Source: a virus
Taxonomy: Duplodnaviria; Heunggongvirae; Uroviricota; Caudoviricetes
Direction: 5' to 3' (one strand)
DNA: 42,815 nt
IMG/VR virus record: IMGVR_UViG_2630968533_000007
Coordinates: 1-42,815 of that record
Made by a program: the position numbers and the translations under genes. Position 1 is the stretch's first letter. Each line of letters opens with the position of its first letter. The notes under the pieces are model-generated. The model was given only the letters and a program-made list of their open reading frames with translations, was not told the origin of the DNA and did no database searches. Below, in pieces: positions 430 to 41,447 of this stretch.

Positions 430-968
430 TATAAGAATCCGCTTCTAATTCAAAGCATTACCCCATCAACACTGCGCTCACACGTCCCACCACATCAAAA
501 CATGTAAAGCCTTGCAAGCCATTGCGAGGCCTTATATGTCTCAGTTTTGTCCCACCTTGTATTACGACTTGCATAGCCAATGAAGATAAACGTAACGACA
601 AACGGCACTGCAGTCTTCTTTTCTTTCACGACTTCCCCACACCCAGCATGCATACCTTTCTGCCACAACTGTAGTGAATGTCTGTTATGAGCGAAATATA
701 GTCATTGACTACCGAATCTCTTTTCGCCGAAACGCGCTACTAAATAGCTAGCGCGTGCGCAATGGCACGTTAGTGCTGATATACGTCAGGAGTAAAGCGT
801 GATGTAAATTTTTCTGATGAATTTTCAGAATGTATCATCCGGGCTTACCGATGGCAGTGTCGTTTCGGCTCAAAAAGGTGTGAAATATAAATAGCAGCGC
901 TGATGTTTAAATAATTATCAAGTCTGGCATGATGAGAGAGAAACTTAACTTATGCGAGGATCGCAAGT

Positions 969-2339
969 ATGCTGAATCTTATCGTTGTCGGAACCCCCAA
1001 ATACTACACTTTTTTTTCTGAACCCAGTGGCAATGACTCTTTCCCTGTGTCGCGACTCTTCGAATCCACGCCAGAGTCTCTTAGAAGCAGATTGCTTCCC
1101 CTGACTGAAAAAACCTATCATTTTCTTCAGGAACTGCCCGTTGTATTTATGTCCGAGCCGGAAATTGAATTCGATGAAGATAATGAAAAAATAGGTTATT
1201 TCAGCCACATCCGCTTAGGAAAAATCAGCAAGATAAGTACGTCCGTGTATAACAGAGAAAAAGTTTTAGCGTTTGATTATGAGATTACCAGTGATATCGG
1301 CTACAAGCCTTTAACCAGCGATAAAGAGTACGTAAGTGAGCTGGAGCTGGGCAGTTTCGGACTAAACAGAACGTTCTGGGCGGTCAAAGAGATTTCCGTA
1401 AATGAGATTCTGCGTGTTTTAGGCCTTGAAGGCTATTCTAATGTTGAGCCCGCAGCAGCGAGTGCGGAAGCACCGGAGAATAATGAAGAACTAGAGATCA
1501 TTGCGAATATCAATCAGTACTTGCAGGTGATACTCGATCATACACAGGGAAACGATGAAGAGGTATTTTACCGCGGTCACTCGGACATCAACTACCAACT
1601 GGAACCCTCACTGTTCCGCAAGGATACTCAGGGTAACTATCGCTACCGCCATCACGAATCGGACATGATAACAGAGCTGCTGACCGTGCAGCCCGCCGAG
1701 TTCAAAGACGATCGGTATATGCTAGATAAACTCGTGCGCATGCAACACTATGGCCTACCCACACGCCTGCTTGATGTATCAACAAACCCCTTGATCGCAC
1801 TATATTTTGCCTGCTCTAAAATCAAGCACGATGAAAATAATCATGAAATTGACGGGAACGTCATTATTCTGACGACGCCCAAAAGTGAAATTAAGTTTTT
1901 CGACTCGGATACCGTAAGTTGCATAGCCAATCTTTCCCGTCTTCCCTCTCGTTTCAAAAGCAGCCTGAAAACTAATCTCACCATTCCGGCGTTTAACGAA
2001 TCTGAAGAGTGCGGACAACTACTACACCTGATCCGCGATGAAAAGTCCTATTTCAAAAGCATCATCGATCCGGTCCACCTAAGTAAAATTGTTGTGGTCA
2101 AAGGTCGGCTCAGTAACGCACGTATTTCGTCCCAATCAGGCGCTTTCCTGCTCTTTGGTGAAAACGTAGACCTACCGGAAACGGGACTCAGTACGCTGAA
2201 CATCAAAAAGCTTGTTATTAGAAACAAAGAGCATCTGATGCAGCAACTGAGCCGCCTTGGCATTAACGAAAGCACGGTGTACCCCGGCATTGAGAAGGCT
2301 GCTACGGAAATTGCAAAACTATACGATGGACGAATCTGA
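969..2339 (+). CDS. FRG-domain protein with an uncharacterised ~190-aa N-terminal region (cargo, candidate defence component)
   Basis: Motifs VFYRGHSDINYQLEPSLFR and LVRMQHYGLPTRLLDVSTNPLIALYFA match the conserved FRG-domain signature; GAGGA ribosome-binding site before the ATG at 969. Confidence 0.55.
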   Translation: MLNLIVVGTPKYYTFFSEPSGNDSFPVSRLFESTPESLRSRLLPLTEKTYHFLQELPVVFMSEPEIEFDEDNEKIGYFSHIRLGKISKISTSVYNREKVLAFDYEITSDIGYKPLTSDKEYVSELELGSFGLNRTFWAVKEISVNEILRVLGLEGYSNVEPAAASAEAPENNEELEIIANINQYLQVILDHTQGNDEEVFYRGHSDINYQLEPSLFRKDTQGNYRYRHHESDMITELLTVQPAEFKDDRYMLDKLVRMQHYGLPTRLLDVSTNPLIALYFACSKIKHDENNHEIDGNVIILTTPKSEIKFFDSDTVSCIANLSRLPSRFKSSLKTNLTIPAFNESEECGQLLHLIRDEKSYFKSIIDPVHLSKIVVVKGRLSNARISSQSGAFLLFGENVDLPETGLSTLNIKKLVIRNKEHLMQQLSRLGINESTVYPGIEKAATEIAKLYDGRI

Positions 2340-2480
2340 TAGCGCTTTAGTCGCACGGCACGCCTGTGTGCCAGCGTGGGCCCATAGCCGCTTTAATCGC
2401 CGTGCAGAATGCAGTTTTCAGGTAACTTCAGAGAAACAAGTGATCTCATTTCGTTGTATTTATTAGCTGCGGAGTCATTA

Positions 2481-3533
2481 ATGGAAAGAATCAAGAGGAA
2501 TCCCGAACGATTTGAAGCCTTTGAGCTTTTTTCCTCGTTGGGCCAGATCTATAATTACGATATTAAAAACCCCGAGCACCAGGATGACTTTATACAAAAG
2601 GTCACCACGTCATTAATCGCTTCCCATCAGAATCCAATTCTGCTGAACGGGAAAAGAATAGAAAACCTATTTAAACACGTTTGCGCCGCACTGAACCACT
2701 GCCAGTTTCTTAAACAGGAAGACGCCGGAGACTTGATGTCAGCCGATCCCGATCTGGTGGCACCTGACTATCGCATTATACTGAAGGATCGCCGTCAGAT
2801 CTTTGTGGAAGTAAAAAACTTTAACGCGGATGACGTGGCTGACGATTATCGCCTGAAGAAATCGTACAGTGATAAGGTTGAAAAGTACGGTGAGCTCCAT
2901 GGTATTCCAGTTTATTATGCCATCTACATCAGGATGCTGCGCCGGTGGGCGCTGGTTGCACGCTCCTCAATGAAGGAGCTAGAGCGTGAACATACCTTGA
3001 CGCAGGCCTCGGCGCTCGCAAAAAGTGAGATGTACCTGCTGGGCGACCTATCGATAGCAACAGAACCCGATCTGGTTTTTGAGCTTATCCCCGACCGGAC
3101 CAAAGAAGTTTCAGTTAGTCCCGAAGGCATCGCCCATTTTACAATTGGCGAGATTAAAATTTACTGCAATGACAGACAAGTAACGGATAAATTTGAAATG
3201 AACACGGCGTTTCATCTGATGCGCTACGGAGAGTGGCTCTGCCCCGGATCGGAGGCAATATTCACTGATGGTCAGCTTGAGAGCATCCGATACACATTTT
3301 CCCCGGAAGACGACGAAAATTACAAAAGACAGGGTTTCGACTTTATAGGTACGCTGAGTTCGCTGGTCACGTCGGCCTTTAACGAGCAGACTGTACACGA
3401 CAGCCAGATCAGGTCAGTTGACACCCGGCAGAATGTCAGACTTTTCACGGTAACCATCCCTGATGATTACAAAGGGGGAGGCCTGCCTCTGTGGCGTTTC
3501 TCAATGCGGCCAAACTATGAATTTACCGATTAA
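2481..3533 (+). CDS. Hypothetical protein, possible PD-(D/E)xK nuclease-like partner of the FRG protein
   Basis: Same strand, 141 bp after the FRG gene; GGAG site 6 nt before the ATG at 2481 (the open frame extends up to 2409); segment PDYRIILKDRRQIFVEVK resembles a D...ExK active-site arrangement. Confidence 0.4.
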   Translation: MERIKRNPERFEAFELFSSLGQIYNYDIKNPEHQDDFIQKVTTSLIASHQNPILLNGKRIENLFKHVCAALNHCQFLKQEDAGDLMSADPDLVAPDYRIILKDRRQIFVEVKNFNADDVADDYRLKKSYSDKVEKYGELHGIPVYYAIYIRMLRRWALVARSSMKELEREHTLTQASALAKSEMYLLGDLSIATEPDLVFELIPDRTKEVSVSPEGIAHFTIGEIKIYCNDRQVTDKFEMNTAFHLMRYGEWLCPGSEAIFTDGQLESIRYTFSPEDDENYKRQGFDFIGTLSSLVTSAFNEQTVHDSQIRSVDTRQNVRLFTVTIPDDYKGGGLPLWRFSMRPNYEFTD

Positions 3534-3820
3534 GAGTAATAGTGAGACATTTAATCGGGATAAATCGCTCGATAATTCGTTGCTACTTCAACAACTTATA
3601 AATGAGAAGACCCAGCCTAATAACCTCACAATCAACTTCATTGCGGATCCCCAAAGATAGACGGGCATAGGCGGCTTTTTATCACCTAAGCGTCAGCGCA
3701 ACATAAATGATCGGGTCAATGGAATGACCTGTTCCCCGTTAAACAACACAGATGGTTGTTAGCCACTTCCGCACTTGGCATGACTTGTCCCACCGTTTGA
3801 TACGTTACTATCTTAGTAAT

Positions 3821-3835
3821 GTCCGCTTCTGGCAC
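3821..3835. repeat. 15-bp direct repeat gtccgcttctggcac, left copy flanking the AT-rich gene 4010-4825
   Basis: Perfect 15-mer also at 4874-4888; both copies are preceded by taatg. Confidence 0.5.
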
Positions 3836-4009
3836 GAAGCTATCGTAGGTTAGGCCCAAGGACAGCTTTAAGCGAGGAGCGGACGCTGAATTCGAATTCA
3901 TCGTAAAAATTTTTATGGCCAAGTAGCTCTATAAGGCCTTTCATTAAAGCTATCTTTGTCGCAAAGCTTATGCAAAAAGTTACTTTATCTTTAAATCTAA
4001 TAAGATAAC

Positions 4010-4825
4010 ATGATTGACGAAACTCCAAAATCAACTTTACTTAAGCAAAAACGAGGCATGCAATTGAAAAAGATTAGGAAAATCAATAAAAAAATTATTG
4101 ATGAATTGCTATCTCTTCGCGAATCAAGAGGAGCTATAGAAGACTTCTCAATGTCTTTCCTACTAAATTTTGCAGAAAATTGTCGACTTATGCATTCACT
4201 TATTTCAACGAAAGATAAGAAAATAGATATTTATAAAACAGCATATCGACAATATTTTGTATTTCTAATCAGTTGCTGGGAAACATATTTTAGAGACGTT
4301 TTTGTTTTCGTGCATTCAGTTGATGAATCTAGAATTACAACACTACTATCTAAAATGAGAACAGAAACATCTATCAATATAAACACTGAGATAAATCTAT
4401 CAGAGTTATTGAGTAAAAGCTTTAACTTTCAAAACTTAAACGACCTTGAAGAAGCATATAATGGCATGTGGGGTGAGAGTTTTTTAAACTACATATGTAC
4501 AACTAATATATCTCCTTGCGGTCTGAGTGGCCAAATTTCCCAAGATTTATCGATAGAAAATATATTTCCAGACTGGAGAGCCCTCATAGAGGAAGCATTT
4601 TACATTAGGCACAAAGTGGTTCATGATGCAAACTTCAGACCTAAAGTCAACATTGAATTAATCAGTAAGGTAGAGGCTTTGTTTTTAATAATCCCACAAT
4701 TTGCAACGCATATCATATCAGAAAGATTCAACTTAAAAAAAATCGTCATTTCAGATGGTAAAAATAACCATACCTATATTTTCAATATCAGTGATATATT
4801 ATCTGATGATTGGGTTGTTAGTTGA
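4010..4825 (+). CDS. Hypothetical AT-rich cargo protein with a C-terminal R-x4-H (HEPN-like) motif
   Basis: 271-aa ORF, markedly AT-rich compared with neighbouring genes; motif RHKVVHD near the C-terminus; no canonical Shine-Dalgarno site. Confidence 0.35.
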   Translation: MIDETPKSTLLKQKRGMQLKKIRKINKKIIDELLSLRESRGAIEDFSMSFLLNFAENCRLMHSLISTKDKKIDIYKTAYRQYFVFLISCWETYFRDVFVFVHSVDESRITTLLSKMRTETSININTEINLSELLSKSFNFQNLNDLEEAYNGMWGESFLNYICTTNISPCGLSGQISQDLSIENIFPDWRALIEEAFYIRHKVVHDANFRPKVNIELISKVEALFLIIPQFATHIISERFNLKKIVISDGKNNHTYIFNISDILSDDWVVS

Positions 4826-4873
4826 TGATGGGATTGTAAGTATATTAACACAAAAAACAAAGAATCTAATGAA

Positions 4874-4888
4874 GTCCGCTTCTGGCAC
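4874..4888. repeat. 15-bp direct repeat gtccgcttctggcac, right copy
   Basis: Perfect match to 3821-3835. Confidence 0.5.
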
Positions 4889-5063
4889 ATAGCAGCCCTA
4901 GAGACAGTGGCGTAAAGTCATGGAGGATAGGTGGGAGGAGGTAAAAATCCTCTCATACAAAAATATGTAAAATCGATAACGGCTGGAAATCATTCAATAT
5001 TCGCACTATCAGAAGCTGGCCAGCCAGCCGCAGCACTTTCTTGCATACGACGAGCCTGCGGTT

Positions 5064-5618
5064 TCATTTATCTCCGACCGGAAACTTCTTATACAGTGTC
5101 GATACACCAACATCATAGATGATCGCCACCTTCTGGCGAGGAATTCCTGCTGCAATTAATCGTCCGGCCTGCGCCCATTGTTCTGGTGTAAGTTTGGGAC
5201 GACGTCCACCAATTCGTCCCTGTGCGCGAGCAGCTTCCAGTCCAGCTTTTGTTCGTTCAACAATCAGTTCACGCTCCATTTCAGCCAGGGCACCCATCAC
5301 ATGAAAGAAAAAACGCCCCATTGGTGTGCTGGTATCAATTGAATCCGTCAGACTACGAAAGTTGATGCCTCGTTCGCGCAACTCCTCCACCAACACGACA
5401 AGATGCCGCATACTACGCCCCAGCCGATCCAGCTTCCAGACAACCAGAGTGTCACCTGCCGATAATGTCCTGAGCAGTTTTTTCAGTCCCGGCCTTTCGG
5501 ACTTTGTGCCGCTTATCTTGTCTTCAAAAATCAGCTCGCATCCTGCACAGTTCAGCGCATTACGTTGTAGATCTGTGTTCTGGTCATTTGTTGATACGCG
5601 TACATAGCCAATAAGCAT
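5064..5618 (-). CDS. pin: Serine recombinase, DNA invertase of the Hin/Gin/Pin family
   Basis: MLIGYVRVSTNDQNTDLQ...VVWKLDRLGRSM...GINFRSLTDSIDTS...GRIGGRRPK is nearly collinear with Pin/Gin invertases; start taken at the internal ATG at 5618. Confidence 0.93.
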   Translation of the reverse strand: MLIGYVRVSTNDQNTDLQRNALNCAGCELIFEDKISGTKSERPGLKKLLRTLSAGDTLVVWKLDRLGRSMRHLVVLVEELRERGINFRSLTDSIDTSTPMGRFFFHVMGALAEMERELIVERTKAGLEAARAQGRIGGRRPKLTPEQWAQAGRLIAAGIPRQKVAIIYDVGVSTLYKKFPVGDK

Positions 5619-5672
5619 GGTAGATCCCCCTGACAAAAGCAGGAATGATGCCATTTGCTCGTTATTTCTGCA

Positions 5673-5698
5673 TTTTCATAAACGTTGGTTTGGGAGAA
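5673..5698. promoter_or_regulatory. Invertase crossover site (gix/hix-like), left
   Basis: ttttcataaacgttggtttgggagaa; in inverted orientation to 7541-7566 (21 of 26 positions, last 14 identical); resembles the hix/gix consensus. Confidence 0.75.
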
Positions 5699-7073: not shown

Positions 7074-7843
7074 TATGCAGCCCTCACGATATAGTTAAAT
7101 GCAATATTTCGTGGACGGGTTTCACTCCCGCCAGTATTACCGATACTCCCTCGTGAATGAAGTGTCGGTGATGGGATCAGACTCCCTCCTGTATTTGCGG
7201 CATCAAGTCCCCGTCCTTGTGTGTATGTCTTTTTGAAAATCGTAGCCAGTTCCCATTCATCTTTTGTGTCGTAACCATCATTGGCAACAACAATATGGCG
7301 GTGTTTTTCCAGCATCCCTGTCTGAATGCTCAATAAAACACGTCCTGCATCAATACCGCGCCCGTCATCCCAGCCACGAATAAACTCACCACGTAAATCA
7401 GGCAATTTATTTGTCGGATAAGCCTTTGCCAGTTCCGGGTATTCTTCAGCAGAAAAAGCCGCACCGTTGCATTTCAGCCAGCCTGTTGGCGGTGTGGCTG
7501 AAGGCCATGGAACAGGCACACCAACAGGTAATGCAGAGCCTTCTCCCAAACCAAGGTTTTCGAGAGCTGTTTTCACGGTGCCATCCGATTTGATATCGCC
7601 AAACGGATTCTTGCGGCTTAACAGCAGCGCACGAAGCGCGGTAAGCAGCTGGTCGTGCCTCCCCTTCTCCAGGCTGGCACCGGATGCCTCCACCACGCCA
7701 CAAAGCTCTTCCTGCAACATGTCAAAGTAGTCATCATCCAGATCGGTGGCAGGCGTGCCGGTCTGGGGGTTACCACGGGTAAAACCGTTCTTACCCGCGC
7801 CGAACTTATCCTTCTGCGCGGTTTTCGTGTCTATACGATGCAT
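7073..7843 (-). CDS. Tail-fibre protein: constant N-terminus plus invertible variable C-terminus
   Basis: Crossover site 7541-7566 lies about 92 codons into the gene; glycine-rich fibre-like C-terminal part. Confidence 0.75.
7541..7566. promoter_or_regulatory. Invertase crossover site (gix/hix-like), right, inside the tail-fibre gene
   Basis: ttctcccaaaccaaggttttcgagag, close to hixL ttcttgaaaaccaaggtttttgataa. Confidence 0.75.
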
Positions 7844-40317: not shown

Positions 40318-41357
40318 AGGCTGAAGCATGGCGGGTCAGCAAACTTGGTGAAATACCTGATATAACGTTCGAGGAAGCGTGTGTCAGGTGGCTTGAAGAG
40401 AAAGCACATAAAAAATCACTGGACGATGACAAAAGCCGGATCGGATTCTGGCTTCAACATTTCGCAGGAATGCAACTAAGAGACATTACTGAATCAAAAA
40501 TTTATTCAGCAATGCAGAAAATGACGAACCGGCGTCATGAGGAAAACTGGAAACTCAGGGCAGAAGCATGCAGAAAAAAAGGGAAACCTGTTCCAGAATA
40601 CACGCCAAAACCAGCGTCCGTTGCAACGAAGGCTACGCATCTTTCATTTATAAAGGCCCTACTAAGAGCCGCAGAGCGTGAATGGAAAATGCTGGATAAG
40701 GCACCAATTATTAAAGTGCCTCAACCAAAGAATAAACGGATCCGCTGGCTGGAGCCCCATGAAGCACAAAGGCTGATTGATGAATGTCCGGAGCCATTAA
40801 AGTCTGTTGTTGAATTTGCACTGGCAACAGGCTTAAGACGCTCGAACATCATCAACCTTGAATGGCAACAAATAGATATGCAGCGCCGGGTGGCATGGAT
40901 AAACCCGGAAGAGAGTAAATCAAACCGCGCAATTGGCGTTGCGCTGAATGATACTGCATGTCGCGTATTGAAAAAACAAATCGGGAATCATCACCGTTGG
41001 GTATTTGTGTACAAGGAAAGCTGTACCAAACCAGACGGAACGAAAGCGCCAACAGTAAGGAAGATGCGGTATGACGCAAACACAGCCTGGAAAGCGGCGC
41101 TGAGACGGGCTGGTATTGATGATTTCAGATTTCACGACTTGAGACACACCTGGGCAAGTTGGCTGGTTCAAGCCGGAGTCCCGTTGTCAGTGTTACAGGA
41201 AATGGGAGGCTGGGAGTCTATCGAAATGGTTCGTCGATATGCTCACCTTGCACCTAATCACCTTACCGAACACGCACGGCAAATAGACTCGATCCTGAAC
41301 CCATCGGTCCCAAATTTGTCCCAGTCAAAAAATAAGGAAGGTACTAATGATGTGTAA
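40194..41357 (+). CDS. int: Site-specific tyrosine integrase (lambda-type)
   Basis: 387 aa with C-terminal ...[10 protein letters not shown]...[15 protein letters not shown] catalytic region; ends 14 bp from the tRNA. Confidence 0.9.
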
Positions 41358-41371
41358 CTTATTGATTTTAA

Positions 41372-41447
41372 TGGTGCCGATAATAGGAGTCGAACCTACG
41401 ACCTTCGCATTACGAATGCGCTGCTCTACCAACTGAGCTATATCGGC
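41372..41447 (-). tRNA. thrW: tRNA-Thr (anticodon CGU)
   Basis: Minus-strand sequence gccgatatagctcagttggtagagcagcgcattcgtaatgcgaaggtcgtaggttcgactcctattatcggcacca folds as a cloverleaf with CGT anticodon and encoded CCA. Confidence 0.92.

Follow-up and report, generated by a model that had tools for sequence, protein, structure and literature searches.

The best-described relatives of the locus considered here occur among the P2-like phages. The boundary site that characterizes them was reportedly first noted in phage P2 by Nilsson, Karlsson and Haggard-Ljungquist in 2004. In these phages, the accessory genes of the classical Z/fun hotspot sit between the tail-fibre assembly gene G and the sheath gene FI. 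GenBank entries AJ512676-AJ512685 ("P2-ECxx proviral Z-region") annotate the stretches at its edges as left and right inverted repeats, and P2 itself has them around fun(Z). In its passage on fun, a review describes the gene as lying between inverted repeats through which site-specific recombination can take place (PMC8987985, citing Nilsson 2004). The present analysis concerns a 42,815-nt stretch of a Caudoviricetes record in IMG/VR (IMGVR_UViG_2630968533_000007, positions 1 to 42,815; hereafter the window), in which an AT-rich open reading frame (ORF) for a HEPN-like protein lies between two perfect 15-bp direct repeats. These repeats are best read as two instances of a palindromic site, conserved among enterobacterial prophages, that marks the limits of swappable accessory-gene cassettes in a hotspot on the tail-fibre side, with the HEPN gene as cargo and site-specific exchange as the process that moves it. 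The probability of this reading is put at about 0.7. The locus is of a known but little-studied type, the inverted-repeat-bounded exchangeable accessory locus of P2-like phages; here it sits in a different phage lineage and comprises an array of two cassettes.

The resemblance to the Z/fun region extends to the boundary sequences, which occur in two kinds, termed sites A and B. Site A, read as its reverse complement, forms the end of the left inverted repeat that faces the cargo (P2-EC30, P2-EC48 and P2), and site B, likewise reverse-complemented, stands at the start of the right one. Both loci hold AT-rich foreign ORFs beside tail-fibre genes, and some identical cassettes are common to the two phage types. 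In contrast to the P2 locus, the window has an e14/phiP27-like backbone, and its hotspot runs from attL to pinE rather than from G to FI. It also holds two cassettes joined by a composite A-N16-B junction, and its terminal A site has the e14-specific right arm AGCAGCC.

Integrons share several features with this arrangement, namely ordered, co-polar cassettes of 0.5-3 kb, imperfectly palindromic junctions of about 60-70 nt, and cargo rich in small accessory and defence genes. However, no IntI-type integrase or attI lies beside the array in the window. Its one tyrosine recombinase is the integrase of the phage, at a distance of 36 kb, and the recombinase next to the array is PinE, a serine invertase. 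Integron cassettes are mostly promoterless and co-oriented, whereas A/B cargo occurs in both orientations and has its own upstream regions. The attC sites of integrons are conserved in structure, not in sequence. The A/B junction, in contrast, is strongly conserved in sequence, including its loops, and shows no covariation indicative of a folded substrate. In the pdif (Xer) modules of Acinetobacter plasmids, inverted palindromic sites flank modules in series. Sites A and B are unlike the arms of dif, cer and pdif, and A/B cassettes are separated by two sites and an 18-nt spacer instead of one shared site. Finally, recombinase-mediated cassette exchange offers a mechanistic parallel, as it keeps orientation when the spacers of the flanking sites differ.

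Boundary sites and the variable hotspot

The 15-mer GTCCGCTTCTGGCAC is present at 3821-3835 and 4874-4888, where an earlier note on this DNA had placed perfect repeats bracketing the AT-rich ORF. These are the only two copies in the window, in which no third was found with up to two mismatches allowed. The same note had judged one such pair to be about what chance predicts in this length of DNA. The expectation is instead 0.06, and two copies were reached in 0 of 100 shuffles. The 15-mer is a recurrent boundary element: it is the commonest form of site A, accounting for 62 of 207 independent A sites in other loci (30%), and two random A sites are identical across it with a probability of 0.15. 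Because it ends 62 of 207 unrelated cassettes, the identity of the two copies in the window is no sign of recent duplication. The bases upstream, said to be taatg in both cases, prove to be out of register: TAAT precedes the first copy, whose own base 1 is the G, and TAATGAA precedes the second. The 15-mers are neither a chance pair nor a target duplication. The sites and cassettes of the hotspot are as follows.

680-696, plus strand: GTCTGTT-ATGAGCGAAA, the remains of the terminal site B; other loci have a cargo-side arm, AGCGGAmGTT, that is absent here (left-junction alignment)
697-3820, plus strand: cassette 1, with an FRG-domain gene (969-2339) and a 374-aa ORF (2409-3533)
3821-3844, plus strand: site A, copy 1, GTCCGCTTCTGGCACGAAGCTATC; it starts with the 15 nt of the left repeat, its right arm is degenerate, and it has 6 mismatches to the consensus (background about 0.1 per 43 kb)
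3845-3860, plus strand: junction spacer, 16 nt here versus 18 nt in most junctions
3861-3884, plus strand: site B opening the HEPN cassette, GACAGCTTTAAGCGAGGAGCGGAC; degenerate, 19 of 24 consensus positions
3885-4873, plus strand: cassette 2 with the HEPN gene, 989 bp, GC content 0.31
4010-4825, plus strand: HEPN_RiboL-PSP-like ORF, listed at 271 aa, with an R200-x4-H205 motif and a short C-terminal beta-rich module
4874-4897, plus strand: terminal site A, copy 2, GTCCGCTTCTGGCACATAGCAGCC; it starts with the 15 nt of the right repeat, matches 20 of 24 consensus positions, and its right arm AGCAGCC is that of the e14-type backbone

Site A is a 24-bp palindrome, GTCCGCT-yCTGGCACrr-AGCGGAC. Site B, GTCyGCT-nTGAGCGArr-AGCGGAC, is essentially an inverted copy of A with another loop, and at the left edge of the hotspot it takes the form GTCyGyT-ATGAGCGArr-AGCGGAm-GTT. 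In each of two A sites, the 15-mer covers the left arm together with the core of the loop, the left copy closing the cassette with the FRG gene and the 374-aa ORF, and the right copy closing the HEPN cassette. Beyond the 15-mer, the two A sites diverge in their right halves (GAAGCTATC versus ATAGCAGCC). The loop cores CTGGCAC and TGAGCGA are nearly invariant across 43 distinct 66-nt junctions and are conserved like the arms, in which about 87% of positions are able to pair. The B loop in the window (3861-3884) reads TAAGCGA, versus TGAGCGA in all 43 of these equal-length junctions. As in the junctions of integron arrays, the 5' end is often AAC and the 3' end GTT.

Some further observations concern the sites themselves. 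In one locus (L036), a B site beside the A site at about position 237 has its loop heptamer expanded to about five tandem GAGCGAA copies (gtgagcgaagagcgaagagcgaagagcgaagagcgaagagcagac), which suggests slippage at the loop core. The left inverted repeat of P2 (L074, 49-60) shares GGAGCTTACATA with the core of the enterobacterial repetitive intergenic consensus (ERIC), and site B shares GGTGAGCGAGG(A). These words (ERIC copies L179 and L180) are too short for claiming a relationship. A sigma-54 promoter, TGGCAC-N5-TTGC, was considered by eye and discarded because the GG-N10-GC spacing is absent. A crossover site for a Din-family invertase (pix/gix/hix/cix) was likewise rejected, as A and B do not have the AAACC-NN-GGTTT core of the 26-bp site. 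No invertase is found in the P2 stretch from G to fun(Z), and none is known elsewhere in P2.

A megablast comparison of the window with 5,426 complete Escherichia coli genomes gave three classes of match. The whole block of FRG gene, 374-aa ORF and HEPN gene is present at 99% identity or more in 27 genomes, some of its carriers being lambdoid prophages without pinE, as is phage PhiR11_1. Well over a thousand genomes match on the pinE side only, with homology beginning at window position 4875 in the examples listed. In many others, both flanks are present with 1.2-4.5 kb of unrelated cargo in between. In seven other-cargo loci from E. coli, the left flank stops at 694-696 and the right flank starts at 4868-4878, precisely at 4874/4875 in five of them and within 6 nt in the remaining two (L008 and L010). 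Site A and site B variants are present at every junction of these seven loci. The alternative cargo includes RES, HNH, GIY-YIG, DUF262, type II restriction-modification, lipase-like and "4-fold beta flower" genes, among others. Because unrelated cargo occupies the interval between common flanks, 697-4873 constitutes a hotspot of variable content, whose right edge is marked by the right 15-mer. A diverged FRG homologue forms a stand-alone B-to-A cassette beside thrW in strain WAT. In E. coli LD22-1 and 15 other genomes, the hotspot has been lost between two ACATA microhomologies (L174, 3140-3170), which is illegitimate deletion rather than site-specific loss.

The arrangement of the sites was scanned in 156 loci, of which IMG/VR and E. 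coli supplied 76, and about 75 Enterobacterales species the other 80. Cassette arrays read B-cargo-A, about 18 nt, B-cargo-A, and where two confident sites are neighbours, they share a strand in 181 of 186 cases. The distance from B to A, which represents the cassette, has a median of 1,620 nt (n=90), and that from A to B, the junction, has a median of 42 nt start to start (n=61). The 70 complete cassettes in the first 76 loci fall into 42 sequence clusters, with none inverted relative to the sites. The same cassette can occur in P2-type and e14-type backbones and beside different neighbours, and individual cargo genes point either way relative to the sites. The perfect site-A palindrome is present in 62 IMG/VR contigs, representing 45 distinct contexts. 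Upstream of it lies unrelated cargo each time. Downstream there is mostly P2-type backbone, 85 nt from G, or an A-N18-B junction followed by the next cassette. The longest arrays contain five or more cassettes (L094, L125, L060 and L063).

This grammar is shared by P2-like phages, e14/phiP27-like and lambdoid prophages, and the chromosomes of about 75 Enterobacterales species. Co-polar arrays of short cassettes were observed in Erwinia, Pantoea, Rahnella, Enterobacter, Buttiauxella and other genera, on chromosomes and in two cases on a plasmid (L085-L164, for example L088, L094, L123, L125 and L135). Judged from ORF starts, the cargo outside Escherichia looks mostly like ordinary accessory genes (such as LysR, LysE, GNAT and SDR), including regulators, transporters and acetyltransferase-like genes. 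These arrays do not as a rule border tail genes: within the 80 8-kb windows from other genera, tfa, FI or Pin was found beside the array in three only.

Proposed cassette exchange and competing explanations

Cassette exchange within the A and B sites is the most likely mechanism. Cassettes would be gained, lost and swapped between co-resident or co-infecting elements through recombination inside the sites. Site A would recombine with A and site B with B, whereby the orientation of the cargo and the polarity of the array would be kept. Pairing of this kind fits the distinct loop cores, the strict polarity and the fact that cargo is never inverted. The process would be like recombinase-mediated cassette exchange with heterospecific sites. 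Within an array, an A-by-A event would excise or insert one unit of junction plus cargo, which in the window would measure 1,053 bp. The HEPN cassette itself looks like an old acquisition that is now fixed in the three-gene block, given that all carriers have the three genes and that the junction is decayed. The internal junction and the left terminal B site have degenerated, the array is now fossilized, and the three genes travel as one block.

The serious rival is recombination across short homology, whether general or of the phage Red/RecT type. Exchange would then occur across about 24-110 bp of shared flank with no dedicated recombinase, and the sites would persist as linkers or for some other reason. 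This account, possible though on balance doubtful, agrees with the long shared flanks of P2-like loci (113 and 91 nt annotated), with breakpoints resolvable only to the shared stretch, and with the lack of a recombinase among the genes found. It also agrees with the transfer of the three-gene block and its flanks as a whole into lambdoid prophages, which resembles ordinary recombination. Yet P2-type and e14-type loci hold identical cassettes while sharing just about 24-30 bp, and palindromes with invariant loop cores, strict A/B alternation and constant polarity in about 75 species are unexpected of neutral linkers. The regular polarity also makes it unlikely that the A-N18-B unit, about 66 nt long and nearly palindromic, is a mobile intergenic repeat, similar to a miniature inverted-repeat transposable element or ERIC, that has inserted between accessory genes. 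Ordinary intergenic stretches of Erwinia, Pantoea, Rahnella and Enterobacter chromosomes do contain copies beside LysR, LysE, SDR and GNAT-type genes, and two matches of 11-12 nt to the ERIC core exist. However, the orientation of neighbouring copies is non-random (181/186 co-oriented), copies are clustered in arrays instead of dispersed, and the ends of arrays carry half-units (B only or A only) fused to the backbone. The sites moreover coincide with the breakpoints of cargo presence and absence, and the similarity to ERIC amounts to two short words in two ERIC copies, set against a consensus of about 127 bp.

A role of the palindromes as RNA or single-stranded DNA hairpins, with conserved structure serving terminators, mRNA stabilizers, processing sites or attC-like substrates, is quite unlikely. 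The pairing potential of the arms would suit such hairpins, as would the location of sites in the untranslated 3' or 5' parts of cassette genes and of the late tail-fibre operon, and isolated compensatory variants occur (GGCTGCT..AGCAGCC in L010, and GTCAGCT..AGCTGAC). Nevertheless, covariation does not exceed that of shuffled controls for either a two-hairpin or a long-range fold, and the loops are as conserved as the stems. A terminator and promoter scan of 3500-5100 gave nothing above background and no T-tract, and Rfam scans of the region and five related loci returned no family for the A/B sites. Terminal e14-type A sites as a rule have mismatched arms, and cargo lies in both orientations relative to the sites. 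The conserved loops, together with the lack of covariation, of a terminator tail and of an Rfam match, favour double-stranded palindromes. With 7-8-bp inverted arms around a conserved core, these would be recognized by a protein, in preference to a folded RNA or single-stranded DNA. Least probable of all, and very improbable, is the origin proposed in the earlier note, in which a 1-kb HEPN element inserted and generated the 15-mers as a target-site or att-type duplication; grouped with it is a chance pair. A perfect 15-bp direct repeat around a compositionally foreign gene is what such an insertion would leave. Against it, the 15-mer ends many unrelated cassettes, its copies extend into different right halves, the HEPN cassette encodes no transposase or integrase, and chance predicts far fewer pairs. 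The recurrence of the site at unrelated junctions already refutes target-site duplication. The earlier interpretation is therefore partly supported, being right about a cassette and about HEPN and wrong about the duplication.

Several points weigh against cassette exchange at A/B sites and HEPN cargo in the window. The internal junction (3821-3884) is the most degenerate of 86 examined, with 11 mismatches, a count of 11 or more being reached by just one other. The left terminal B site (680-696) consists of a left arm and loop only, without its cargo-side arm. Because of this decay, independent acquisition of the HEPN gene is argued by analogy with better-preserved arrays. The comparison with related prophages proposed earlier, in which an empty site would carry a single repeat, yielded no empty site or excision polymorphism for the HEPN cassette: all 27 carriers among the 5,426 E. 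coli genomes have the full block, and all 27 have both 15-mers. Empty hotspots were recovered with a joined-flank query in 16 genomes only, and the ACATA-microhomology deletions that produced them removed both sites. The e14 element of K-12 (L181, pinE-mcrA-icdC) has no A/B site within 7 mismatches and carries mcrA at the same position between pinE and att, so not every e14-type element uses A/B boundaries. ORF clustering revealed no conserved recombinase near the arrays. Breakpoints can be placed only within the shared 24-30 bp, as short-homology recombination would also give. With respect to the cargo, the HEPN protein scores 26.4 bits (E=7.8e-6) against Pfam PF18735 (HEPN_RiboL-PSP), 2 bits short of the gathering cut-off of 28.4, and its RNase and defence activities are predicted.

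A broader proposal can be made tentatively. Sites A and B might belong to a widespread, as yet uncharacterized cassette-exchange system of Enterobacterales, with an integron-like grammar of strictly polar B-cargo-A units linked by the conserved 66-nt junction. It would operate in the hotspots of P2-like, e14-like and lambdoid prophages and in chromosomal arrays, driven by a sequence-specific recombinase, probably encoded by the host or a helper element, that would act on double-stranded palindromes with heterospecific cores. If true, such a system would supply the missing mechanism for the fast turnover of defence genes in prophage hotspots. These hotspots are a main reservoir of anti-phage genes, and their contents turn over fast. 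Where it treats this question, the study of Rousset et al. (2022, PMC9122126) states that the recombination pathway of hotspot turnover needs further experimental work. The A/B motif was not found in print in the literature searched, and keyword searches there gave no description of the arrays, Nilsson 2004 being outside that scope; the wider array grammar across Enterobacterales may be undescribed. The A/B signature provides a concrete, searchable DNA mark for the cassette boundaries of one such hotspot, and this mark links three phage lineages and many chromosomal arrays. It can be used to delimit cassettes, to mine defence candidates such as the HEPN protein and the FRG/PDC-S15 module, to hunt for the recombinase by phylogenetic profiling, and as a basis for planning exchange assays. 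As far as the window alone is concerned, the outcome is modest: an uncharacterized HEPN gene in a fossilized two-cassette array.

The predicted HEPN protein

The ORF at 4010-4825 exists as previously listed, with 271 codons translated and a GC content of 0.31; the window as a whole has 0.51, and the neighbouring phage backbone 0.54. The cassette has the same value as the ORF, which sits in a trough of 29-34% GC between flanks of 45-55%. Homologues begin at residues 17-19, and a GAGG lies 5 nt 5' of the ATG at 4058, so the true gene is probably 4058-4825, encoding 255 aa. The R-x4-H motif noticed earlier, RHKVVHD, occupies residues 200-206, and R200, H201 and H205 are invariant in an alignment of 36 sequences with a mean column identity of 52%. 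Further invariant residues in this set are R80-Q81-Y82, E91-T92, R95-D96 and N139-F140-Q141. PF18735 is matched by 32 of the 36 homologues, and among 10 scanned singly, seven (50-58% identical) score 34-39 bits. The AlphaFold2 model (mean predicted local distance difference test score, pLDDT, 83.7) is helical with a small C-terminal beta module. The fold check suggested in the earlier note came out in its favour, as the predicted all-alpha helical bundle matches solved HEPN proteins.

The AT-rich gene is predicted to encode a HEPN RNase, which is probably an anti-phage effector. Its most likely function would be that of a stand-alone HEPN RNase for abortive infection or superinfection exclusion. 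The protein would be a dimeric, metal-independent RNase that stays inactive until phage infection and then aborts the infection or excludes the superinfecting phage. Suitable comparators are the single-protein HEPN effectors of prophages, AbiV, Gifsy-1 HepS and staphylococcal Tha, and the HEPN toxins of HEPN-MNT modules. In contrast to these, the window protein shows sequence similarity to no family other than Pfam RiboL-PSP-HEPN. It has an additional helical part at its N terminus and a short module at its C terminus, and no MNT antitoxin gene lies next to it. PADLOC, PHROGs and NCBIfam do not include it. Outside E. coli, the relatives closest to it (79-87% aa identity) have unrelated, AT-rich surroundings in which A/B sites are absent. 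One close homologue (L176) has ThsB-TIR and DUF1883-TIR genes as neighbours. About 30 residues at the C terminus of the family (about 243-271; 4736-4825) give sub-threshold matches to the latter half of Pfam's Tad2-like (Thoeris anti-defence 2) domain, at best 23.0 bits versus a cut-off of 25 (homologues P0007, P0009, P0014, P0028, P0032 and P0046). This module may be ligand-sensing, or the match may be due to chance.

The surrounding prophage

The window contains a prophage of about 41 kb, e14/phiP27-like, in the tRNA-Thr gene thrW, and its sequence is identical to that of E. coli WP4-S18-ESBL-09. The tRNA-Thr gene and the integrase are annotated at the right end of the prophage. From the left, the gene order is attL, 250 bp of backbone, the FRG gene, the 374-aa ORF, the HEPN-like ORF and pinE. 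These are followed by an invertible tail-fibre segment, by baseplate, tail, head, lysis and early genes, and by the integrase. The backbone genes include a P27-family small terminase, an HK97-type head, a Mu-like baseplate and pinE. The features flanking the hotspot are listed below.

367-429, no strand: attL, the left end of the prophage; a 63-bp direct repeat of 41355-41417 (blastn, 98.4%), made up of the 3' part of the tRNA-Thr gene thrW and a few bases
430-679, no strand: left backbone, 92-96% identical to prophages carrying unrelated cargo; homology stops at 694-696 in L002 and L006-L011
4898-5063, no strand: conserved backbone from the hotspot to pinE, which travels with the three-gene block into lambdoid prophages
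5064-5654, minus strand: pinE, serine DNA invertase (Pfam Resolvase and HTH_7; annotation)

The FRG-domain protein of cassette 1 matches the PADLOC candidate PDC-S15 (E=8e-99), and the 374-aa ORF (2409-3533) gave no family match. This second ORF always follows the FRG gene here, and by eye it contains a D...EVK stretch resembling PD-(D/E)xK nucleases. Classical cores of the PinE type are present at 5680-5691 and 7548-7559. These Din-family crossover-like cores, AAACGTTGGTTT and AAACCAAGGTTT, flank the tail-fibre/tfa segment beside pinE, and the segment between them is the expected invertible host-range switch. Just outside attL, a frameshifted integrase fragment (215-369) represents the remnant of an earlier thrW-integrated element.

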